Shown: positions 54,377 through 54,625 of the stretch, in pieces
How the letters are laid out: each line of letters starts with the position of its first letter
Numbering within the stretch: the stretch's first letter is position 1
Origin: an uncultured Bacilli bacterium
Lineage (GTDB): Bacteria > Bacillota_I > Bacilli_A > RF39 > UBA660
Assembly: GCA_934101865.1 (NCBI GenBank)
Contig: CAKOSA010000002.1
Span: forward strand, 17,929-81,928
Direction: 5' to 3'
Length of the DNA: 64,000 bases
Program-made: the position numbers and the translations under genes
The notes under the pieces: generated by a model
What the model was told of the DNA's origin: nothing
The model's database searches: none
Seen by the model: the letters and a program-made list of their open reading frames with translations, nothing else

Positions 54377-54399
54377 AGTACCATCCCTTTCTTTATACA

Positions 54400-54453
54400 C
54401 AGAAAAAGACTATAACAAATTAGAGTACTCCCATACTCTTTATGTTATAGTCT
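54400..54453 (-). terminator. Intrinsic terminator inside the 5' leader of the 508-aa gene
   Basis: On the minus strand, AGACTATAACA (54453-54443) pairs with TGTTATAGTCT (54417-54407). An inner stem AGAGTA/TACTCT lies between them, and TTTTTCTG follows. It ends ~25 nt before the ATG at 54376. Confidence 0.75.
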
Positions 54454-54477
54454 ATTCCATTTAATATAGTAGCTCCG

Positions 54478-54558
54478 CTACTTAATGTACCTGTCGGTAC
54501 AATCCCCCCCCCCATTTAATAAATGTACCTCAAAAAATTTTTTTGAAATTTTTTTCAT
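54478..54558 (-). CDS. Leader small ORF (26 aa) containing the G10 tract
   Basis: My hand translation gives MKKISKKFFEVHLLNGGGDCTDRYIK*. It is preceded by a conserved SD AGAAAGAGAGGTG, and the C-terminal GGGDCTDRYIK is identical in the second leader. Confidence 0.4.
   Translation of the reverse strand: MKKISKKFFEVHLLNGGGDCTDRYIK
54504..54513 (-). repeat. Homopolymeric G10 tract (C10 on plus strand) in leader ORF
   Basis: These are ten consecutive C residues on the plus strand. An identical-length tract lies at 60190-60199. Confidence 0.95.
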
Positions 54559-54596
54559 ATAAGATTGCACCTCTCTTTCTTCTATTTTCTATCACC

Positions 54597-54625
54597 ATAA
54601 TACCAAATATTTACAAATATTGCAA
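54597..54625 (-). promoter_or_regulatory. Promoter of leader + 508-aa gene (TTGCAA-17-TATTAT)
   Basis: On the minus strand, TTGCAA is at 54625-54620 and TATTAT at 54602-54597. Confidence 0.5.

Follow-up and report, generated by a model that had tools for sequence, protein, structure and literature searches.

How is a surface-protein gene expressed when an intrinsic terminator stands between it and its promoter? This arrangement occurs twice in the 64,000-nt stretch of DNA analysed here (the window), which comes from an uncultured Bacilli bacterium of the human gut that is represented solely by MAGs. The original prediction held that a terminator in this place implies conditional read-through, as with an attenuator, a riboswitch or protein-mediated antitermination, and that one shared element gates both paralogous genes at transcription elongation. 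The shared gate stands, as the same leader was found in front of each gene. A riboswitch or protein-binding attenuator appears improbable: Rfam gave no match, and the evidence indicates a tract of G residues as the switch. This tract had been treated merely as a landmark; in both copies it lies within the short ORF of the leader (uORF) and sets the position of its stop. We consider it likely that each leader is a phase-variable, ribosome-read transcription attenuator switched by the length of its G tract.

Anatomy of the two leaders

The features of both leaders and of the genes behind them are collected in Table 1. The copy 1 leader (54625-54377, minus strand) consists of a promoter, an SD box, a uORF with a G10 tract, two small hairpins and a terminator, followed by the gene. 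The copy 2 leader (60330-60062, minus strand) has the same layout and precedes a 499-aa paralogue. The predicted parts of copy 1 (promoter, SD, 26-codon ORF, hairpins and a terminator with an 11-bp stem and U5) were all found on the minus strand where they had been placed. The first gene had been read as encoding 508 aa and was revised: that ORF starts at a GTG inside the leader, and the real start is the ATG at 54376, which gives 500 aa, as in the homologues of 500-503 aa.

Table 1. Positions in the window of the parts of the two leaders and of the genes that follow them.
Feature	Position	Strand	Remarks
Copy 1 promoter, TTGCAA-17-TATTAT, with upstream TG (extended -10)	54597-54625	-	Same module kept in L055-L057
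Copy 1 SD box AGAAAGAGAGGTGCAAT, strong extended Shine-Dalgarno of the uORF	54564-54580	-	17 nt; identical in copy 2 and most related leaders
Copy 1 uORF with G10 (frame A), MKKISKKFFEVHLLNGGGDCTDRYIK	54478-54558	-	ATG 54558, 26 codons, TAG 54480-54478
Copy 1 G10 tract within the uORF, proposed slippage switch	54504-54513	-	Length polymorphism at orthologous loci
Copy 1 hairpin 1 (UGUACC-GACA-GGUACA)	54486-54501	-	-7.3 kcal/mol; compensatory changes at three pairs
Copy 1 hairpin 2 (AGUAGC-GGA-GCUACU)	54468-54482	-	-5.2 kcal/mol; one covarying pair
Copy 1 intrinsic terminator	hairpin 54453-54407, with U5 to 54403	-	11-bp lower stem, internal loop, 7-bp upper stem
Copy 1 frame-B stop TAA	54420-54422	-	Used only if the tract has 6, 9 or 12 G's; 2 nt ahead of the terminator 3' arm
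500-aa secreted or membrane-anchored protein, SD AAAGGGA	52874-54390 including SD	-	ATG 54376
346-aa paralogue following the 500-aa gene	51805-52845	-	
Copy 2 promoter, TTGAAA-17-TAAAAT, with upstream TG	60302-60330	-	Kept in class-a leaders
Copy 2 SD box AGAAAGAGAGGTGCAAT	60272-60288	-	Identical to copy 1
Copy 2 uORF with G10 (frame A), MKRSMNNYVKLLKVIYKYEQSFGGGDCTDRYIK	60164-60265	-	33 aa
Copy 2 G10 tract	60190-60199	-	
Copy 2 hairpin 1	60187-60172	-	
Copy 2 hairpin 2	60168-60154	-	
Copy 2 terminator with U5	60089-60139	-	Frame-B stop TGA 60108-60106
499-aa membrane-anchored paralogue behind copy 2	58562-60061	-	

The SD box was located 9-10 nt ahead of the uORF ATG in both copies. Around the tract, the uORF reads MKKISKKFFEVHLLN-GGG-DCTDRYIK in copy 1 and MKRSMNNYVKLLKVIYKYEQSF-GGG-DCTDRYIK in copy 2, and both products (26 aa and 33 aa) end in GGGDCTDRYIK. 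The near-identity of the leaders from the G tract onward, as predicted, corresponds to a repeat of 127 nt with 96% identity (54387-54513 / 60073-60199) that extends from the G run to the gene. The stretch between the SD and the G tract was confirmed to be unrelated between the copies; the uORF is in frame across the G run in both. The two G10 tracts are the only runs of at least eight G's in the 64 kb.

In copy 1, the frame-C stop TAA (54484-54482) lies directly 5' of hairpin 2, and the frame-A TAG (54480-54478) lies in its 5' arm. The predicted terminator hairpin carries a GNRA-type loop (GGGA) on its upper stem and has a folding energy of -20.5 kcal/mol (z = -6.7 versus shuffles). It is directly followed by U5, so that the stable hairpin and adjoining U-run of a Rho-independent terminator are both present; a simple terminator scanner overlooked it, owing to the criteria that this scanner applies to loop and GC. 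About 25 nt separate the end of the terminator from the SD of the surface-protein gene. A candidate promoter was considered there, with TTGTTA in the 3' arm and TATAAA, and was rejected: its spacer is 15 nt in the window, and it is not conserved in relatives. A conserved promoter would not fit between terminator and gene, so that the gene must be expressed by read-through. This bears out the original expectation, and read-through at both leaders is probably conditional.

Related leaders, tract length and RNA structure

Homologues of the 500-aa protein were abundant in gut metagenome assemblies, and the contigs carrying them have the same leader. From 62 fetched loci we extracted more than 50 leaders, 14 of which were distinct downstream of the tract; most of these comparative data came from look-ups of contigs that encode the exact proteins. 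A genome-collection scan with the protein gave only four loci, none of which had the leader upstream. A metagenome scan with a DNA pattern gave two loci, and a scan of viral contigs for the terminator motif gave no matches. Within the window, a covariance model built from the family found exactly two copies (118 and 117 bits) and no further divergent ones, the next matches being the reverse strands of the same two copies (≤23 bits).

Three sets of loci from independent metagenome samples or assemblies differed in tract length. The tract was G10 in L009, L010, L011 and L013 and G9 in L012, and it was G10 in L042 and G11 in L039 and L040; within each of these sets, the flanks (400 nt upstream, 600 nt downstream) were identical. 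The third set comprised L056 and L057 with G10 and L055 with G11; here the upstream 400 nt agreed, as did 596 of the 600 nt downstream (four mismatches in L055). In the G9 contig, which stands among four otherwise identical G10 contigs, the gene caller reports the long uORF as a 44-aa protein. Altogether, tracts of G6, G9, G10 and G11 were seen in DNA, these lengths being assembly consensus rather than read counts of a homopolymer type that is error-prone in Illumina data. Among the leaders that had not been selected by frame, all three frame states were present, and G10 was the commonest length.

Searching a protein database with the hypothetical long-frame products gave 197 ORF clusters of 31-67 aa, all ending at the same stop. 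Among 118 inspected ORFs from these clusters, the Gly run comprised 1-5 residues, corresponding to tracts of about 6, 9, 12 and 15 G's, in a sample that is biased because short-frame uORFs are mostly too short for calling. The N-terminal parts of the uORFs fell into at least five unrelated classes. The conserved part in frame A occurred as DCTDRYIK, DCIDRYIK, ACTNKCIK and ACIDRCFK.

The number of G's determines where the uORF ends relative to the terminator, which spans +50 to +96 after the tract. With G10, the uORF ends at the TAG at +23, 24 nt ahead of the terminator, and with G11 at the TAA at +19, slightly earlier, so that the short-frame stops lie 24-28 nt upstream of the terminator. With G9, G6 or G12, the uORF extends over 27 open codons to a stop at +81, inside the terminator and 2 nt before its 3' arm. 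The layout of +19 (TAA), +23 (TAG) and +81 was invariant in 14/14 distinct leaders. The stop at +81 was TAA, TGA or TAG depending on the leader, all three stop codons thus occurring at one position. In all 14 variants, the long frame was free of internal stops. The remaining two had 3-7 and 2-4 stops each, and these turn over within the variable linker. No indels were found in the 96 nt after the tract among the 14 distinct leaders; the linker from hairpin 2 to the terminator is 14 nt long and highly variable, and every leader had a U-run of 4-6 U's. In one sequence of the given composition, a long frame as open as this has a probability of about 0.075, and its persistence across diverged linkers argues for selection. 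The features by which a leader-peptide attenuator is recognised were found together in these leaders: an SD-bearing leader ORF after the promoter, a repeat inside that ORF, variation in repeat number, a predicted terminator between uORF and gene, and frame-dependent stops before versus within the terminator.

The leader RNA forms three simple independent hairpins, with neither a junction nor a pocket. Compensatory changes were observed in hairpins 1 and 2 and in the top pair of the terminator, with stems such as GUACC/GGUAC, GUAUC/GAUAC, GCAUC/GAUGC and UGCAC/GUGCA. Double changes occurred at five pairs (14 cells), and none of 500 shuffles reached the observed covariation score. Pairing was 97% for the proposed structure versus 22-51% in slid controls, and RNAalifold, run independently, returned the same fold. 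The stem sides read from codon pairs in the 118 database ORFs covary almost perfectly, with peptide-inferred tallies of S/D 100, P/G 13 and mixed 1 for one pair, and N/I 94, S/T 16 and mixed 3 for another. The compensatory changes alter residues in both frames; therefore the constraint is on the RNA and not on the peptide. The terminator stems were nearly invariant and are supported by their folding energy, not by covariation.

No conserved alternative (antiterminator) pairing was found in the leaders. A candidate antiterminator between the 3' arms of hairpin 2 and the terminator, examined by eye, had just 6-7 AU-rich pairs and was too weak. Pairing of the SD box with the post-tract region (GGUGCAAU with AUUGUACC) was seen in the MFE structure of copy 2 only. 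In the copy 1 MFE structure the SD box has different partners, and the GGUGCAAU/AUUGUACC pairing is missing from leaders with other SD modules; it is therefore not supported.

Surface proteins, cassette copies and neighbouring genes

The surface proteins have an N-terminal signal or anchor helix. Sequence searches of Pfam, NCBIfam and the PDB assigned them to no family. The AlphaFold model of the 500-aa protein (52874-54376, m0a630bea6567) is of medium quality (pLDDT 69) and shows beta-sandwich domains. Its best PDB fold match, a weak one, was the IgA peptidase of Thomasclavelia ramosa (9qa6; E = 5e-5, TM 0.34, 302 columns), and its N-terminal domain resembles collagenase and enterotoxin binding domains. 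No HExxH motif was seen in the 500-aa protein; therefore, any similarity to the IgA peptidase would be non-catalytic.

Four or more distinct paralogous genes (481-530 aa) stand behind leaders that match in every base. Conversely, one and the same downstream gene was found behind different promoter/uORF modules in L042 and L043. The cassette therefore recombines among copies. Paralogous targets that are N-terminally anchored or secreted and stand behind one leader are typical of contingency loci. The window also holds a 530-aa paralogue without the leader, which has its own promoter, TTGAAT-17-TATTAT with TG, followed by an SD (58424-58561, minus strand). The 499-aa gene ends in a hairpin, AGTAGAATACAT...ATGTATTCTACT, ahead of that promoter.

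An alternative 5' module was observed in other samples (L005 1-60, reverse strand; L051 and L053 1-150; L058-L062 250-450). It has its own promoter-like sequence and start codon (MLKLGKINREKKCKIIQKST...), and ends in ...AAAGTGTAAAATAATTCAAAAATCTACA. Its point of fusion to the leader varies and lies inside the uORF or shortly ahead of it; such fusions occur in at least 11 database ORF clusters. The contigs with this module break about 340 nt upstream, and the module resembles one end of an element that carries a promoter and is mobile or recombining. In L048, a tyrosine recombinase gene (7860-8762; Phage_integrase family, 300 aa) directly follows the leader-controlled surface-protein gene; it may be a housekeeping Xer gene.

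Several neighbours of the two units deserve description. Located 163 nt downstream of the pair of 500-aa and 346-aa genes is a seven-gene F1-like ATPase cluster (46363-51641, minus strand) with its own consensus promoter (51706-51678), encoding a c-like protein of 82 aa, a 252-aa protein, alpha-like (441 aa) and beta-like (450 aa) subunits, proteins of 85 and 180 aa, and a gamma-like subunit of 255 aa. Between the two leader-gene units (54746-56647, minus strand) lie an AAA_14/DUF4143 ATPase gene and a weakly AbiEi-like gene; a second AAA_14/DUF4143 gene is at 36973-38241. Several unrelated contigs (L019, L021, L055-L057) carry the same ATPase gene directly ahead of the leader, so that it may travel with the cassette. 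Upstream of copy 2 (60380-61000, minus strand), we observed two tandem modules (repeat 60520-60636 / 60839-60955, 76% identity), each with a conserved GTAATATGTATTTAGGAAAAnTTAGTTAGTAGCTAATGAC and a tiny ORF (MSKNLNITITNFIYYL or MRRTLKLTIYKIYFFFVKVSQILSIISR), as well as palindromes (CCTAGTTAC...GTAACTAGG). The tandem modules may be small hydrophobic-protein or toxin-like modules. Farther away, the region 26508-29883 contains a perfect 300-nt direct repeat (26508-26807 / 28372-28671), accompanied by two ORFs of 404 aa each that gave identical Pfam results, both with HTH_38 at the N-terminus. An IS30-type insertion sequence is probably present here in two copies. More diverged repeats are present at 14.6-15.9, 25-26.5 and 30.2-30.8 kb.

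The proposed switch, its alternatives and known systems

We propose that transcription would start at the extended -10 promoter and that the strong SD would direct translation of the short uORF with its hypermutable G tract. Slipped-strand mispairing at replication would add or remove a G and thereby change the uORF frame. With G10, as in both window copies, or G11, the ribosome would stop at the TAG or TAA, 24-28 nt before the terminator. Its early release would let the hairpin form, and most transcripts would end at the U-run, leaving the gene OFF or low. With G9, G6 or G12, the ribosome would pass both small hairpins and the 5' arm of the terminator and stop 2 nt before the 3' arm; its footprint would cover this arm or unwind the terminator, and RNA polymerase would continue into the gene behind it (ON). 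Whether a ribosome enters the terminator and the gene is ON is thus probably decided, heritably but reversibly, by a change of one base in the tract. Because the tract lies inside the uORF, is the sole difference between loci and sets the stop site, the gating is most likely stochastic and genetic, that is, phase variation read by the ribosome and not a response to a ligand.

By analogy with the pil1 system of Streptococcus gallolyticus, in which both are proven, we infer termination at the hairpin and its relief by translation. Slippage within populations, the ON/OFF direction and the termination efficiency are presumptive. RNA polymerase frequently moves ahead of the ribosomes in Firmicutes of the Bacillus type, and a ribosome could then prevent termination only with the help of pausing, which counts against the attenuator reading. 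Our guess is that hairpins 1 and 2 pause RNA polymerase for coupling. In addition, slippage of RNA polymerase or of the ribosome on the G run may add non-heritable heterogeneity.

We also observed a second potential start codon in copy 1, where the Asn codon AAT and the first G of the tract form an ATG (54515-54513, minus strand). With a G10 tract, this ATG belongs to the long frame. It has GAGGT 11 nt upstream and opens an ORF of 31 aa identical to a database protein (P0216). This internal ATG is common to copy 1 and the other leaders in which the uORF reads ...HLLN ahead of the tract. It could cause basal or leaky read-through in the nominal OFF state, blurring the switch.

A ligand- or protein-responsive attenuator (a riboswitch, an antitermination protein or an antitermination RNA), with the hairpins as its sensor and the uORF and G tract incidental, would agree with the terminator between promoter and gene and with two conserved, covarying small hairpins that have no assigned role. 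Nevertheless, we find it improbable. Rfam 15 gave no matches in the whole window at gathering thresholds, and over 54000-61000 at E up to 10 it gave nothing relevant, the matches being far below the gathering score of each family; as in the original prediction, the element was thus assigned to no known riboswitch class, in either leader. The three independent hairpins form no multi-helix junction, and no conserved antiterminator pairing was found. Nor would a sensor of this kind account for the strong SD, the 27 open codons of the long frame, the invariant stop positions in all three frames, or loci that differ in tract length alone. Slippage at another level is the next point to consider. As reviewed in PMC5009743, homopolymer runs of ≥9 are RNA polymerase slippage sites, and G GGG GGG is slippery for tRNA-Gly. 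Slippage of RNA polymerase or ribosomal frameshifting on G10 would give a fixed long-frame fraction per cell, and hence graded control and not a heritable switch. G10 was indeed the commonest length among leaders not selected by frame, and in class-a leaders the run is immediately preceded by a small hairpin (-3.8 kcal/mol in copy 2). In copy 1-type leaders, however, this hairpin is unstable (0 kcal/mol), so that a stimulating hairpin is not a general feature, and the tracts differ in length between samples at the DNA level, with lengths of about 6, 9, 12 and 15. We regard this explanation as rather unlikely on its own; it is compatible with the phase-variable attenuator, and both could coexist.

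The strong SD and the long-frame ORFs (31-67 aa) called on many contigs would also suit a small-protein gene with its own terminator, in which the G tract phase-varies the peptide and the surface gene depends on residual read-through or another signal. Such a gene would have to tolerate at least five unrelated classes of N-terminal parts and residue changes in both frames of its conserved part wherever the RNA stems covary, and it would leave the downstream gene without a promoter; we hold this to be very unlikely. It is more improbable still that the palindromes flanking the G tract are DNA recombination sites that shuffle promoters among paralogues, as in Mycoplasma vsa/vpma, with the terminator being secondary. 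The mosaic 5' modules, including the different promoter/uORF modules of L042 and L043 before the same gene, the fusion of the MLKLGKINREKKCKIIQKST... module to leaders at variable positions, and the recombinase gene adjoining L048 are in line with it. The variable junctions, however, fit homologous recombination or insertion and not a fixed crossover site, and the compensatory stem changes fit RNA folding better than protein-DNA recognition. Moreover, no inverted arrangements were seen, and no recombinase gene was noted near the two leaders in the annotated part of the window.

The ribosome-read attenuator proposed here has a close counterpart. In S. gallolyticus pil1 and pil3, changes in the number of GCAGA repeats extend the leader peptide, whose end then falls inside or past a stem-loop terminator (Danne 2014, PMC3894217). 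The OFF frame ends 39 bp short of the hairpin, and the ON frames end inside it or downstream of it; mutation of the ATG abolished the effect, and deletion of the terminator locked the system ON (PMC3894217). Promoter, repeat-bearing leader ORF, stem-loop terminator and surface-structure gene(s) follow in the same order in both systems, repeat gain or loss shifts the leader frame in both, and both have more than one locus per genome. The repeat is a G homopolymer here and consists of GCAGA units there, the host lineages differ, and an informal comparison showed no obvious sequence resemblance. The short-frame stop lies 24-28 nt from the hairpin, compared to 39 bp in pil1, and one of three frames reaches the terminator, whereas both out-of-frame states do so in pil1. 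Our leaders have two extra conserved hairpins and form a recombining, highly conserved multi-copy cassette for a large paralogous family, in contrast to the sortase pili of pil1/pil3. In the literature searched, pil1/pil3 was the only system with experimentally shown coupling of leader-peptide repeat slippage to transcription attenuation. The leader cassette appears to be an independently evolved, homopolymer-based version of the pil1-type mechanism.

In trp and his leaders, the position of the ribosome on the leader ORF decides whether the terminator hairpin forms. Ribosome position would be the determinant here too, but our leaders have no regulatory codons and no conserved antiterminator or anti-antiterminator, and the input would be a heritable frame change instead of charged tRNA. 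Poly-G contingency genes occur in Neisseria and Campylobacter. In Bifidobacterium breve, intragenic G tracts act as contingency loci of pilus genes (PMC9187656). These loci share with ours a tract of about 9-11 G's that switches surface structures via replication slippage. Their tracts lie in the structural gene or promoter and truncate the protein, whereas here the tract lies in a separate uORF, would act via the terminator and leaves the structural gene intact. Mycoplasma vlp, vsa and vpma are families of variable surface proteins that switch stochastically via a conserved 5' region, and the Clostridioides difficile cwpV and flgB switches act after initiation, on elongation or termination of the leader transcript. 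Our paralogues resemble the Mycoplasma families in being surface proteins with a conserved 5' region. The Mycoplasma and C. difficile switches use promoter-spacer tracts or site-specific DNA inversion, in contrast to the uORF frame that the ribosome would read here.

As a wider and doubtful reading, the cassette might control antigenic variation of the kind found in Mycoplasma, with dozens of paralogues under three-state G-tract attenuators, modules (one of them mobile) exchanged by recombination, and the proteins as functional counterparts of MIB-MIP beside an F1-like ATPase cluster. The points cited for it are the adjoining seven-gene ATPase cluster and the weak IgA peptidase fold match of the 500-aa protein. 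The mycoplasma Type 3 'F1-like X0' ATPase is always found together with MIB-MIP, a surface system that cleaves antibodies and cannot do without this ATPase (PMC12994834). The cluster in the window resembles it in gene number and content.

The presence of a standard cassette before many surface-protein paralogues in a common uncultured human-gut lineage suggests that the pil1-type mechanism is general. Short G-tract ORFs before terminators, of which databases hold dozens as hypothetical proteins of 31-67 aa, would then be regulatory read-outs and not proteins, and the ratios of tract lengths in metagenomic reads could be used to track surface-antigen switching in vivo.
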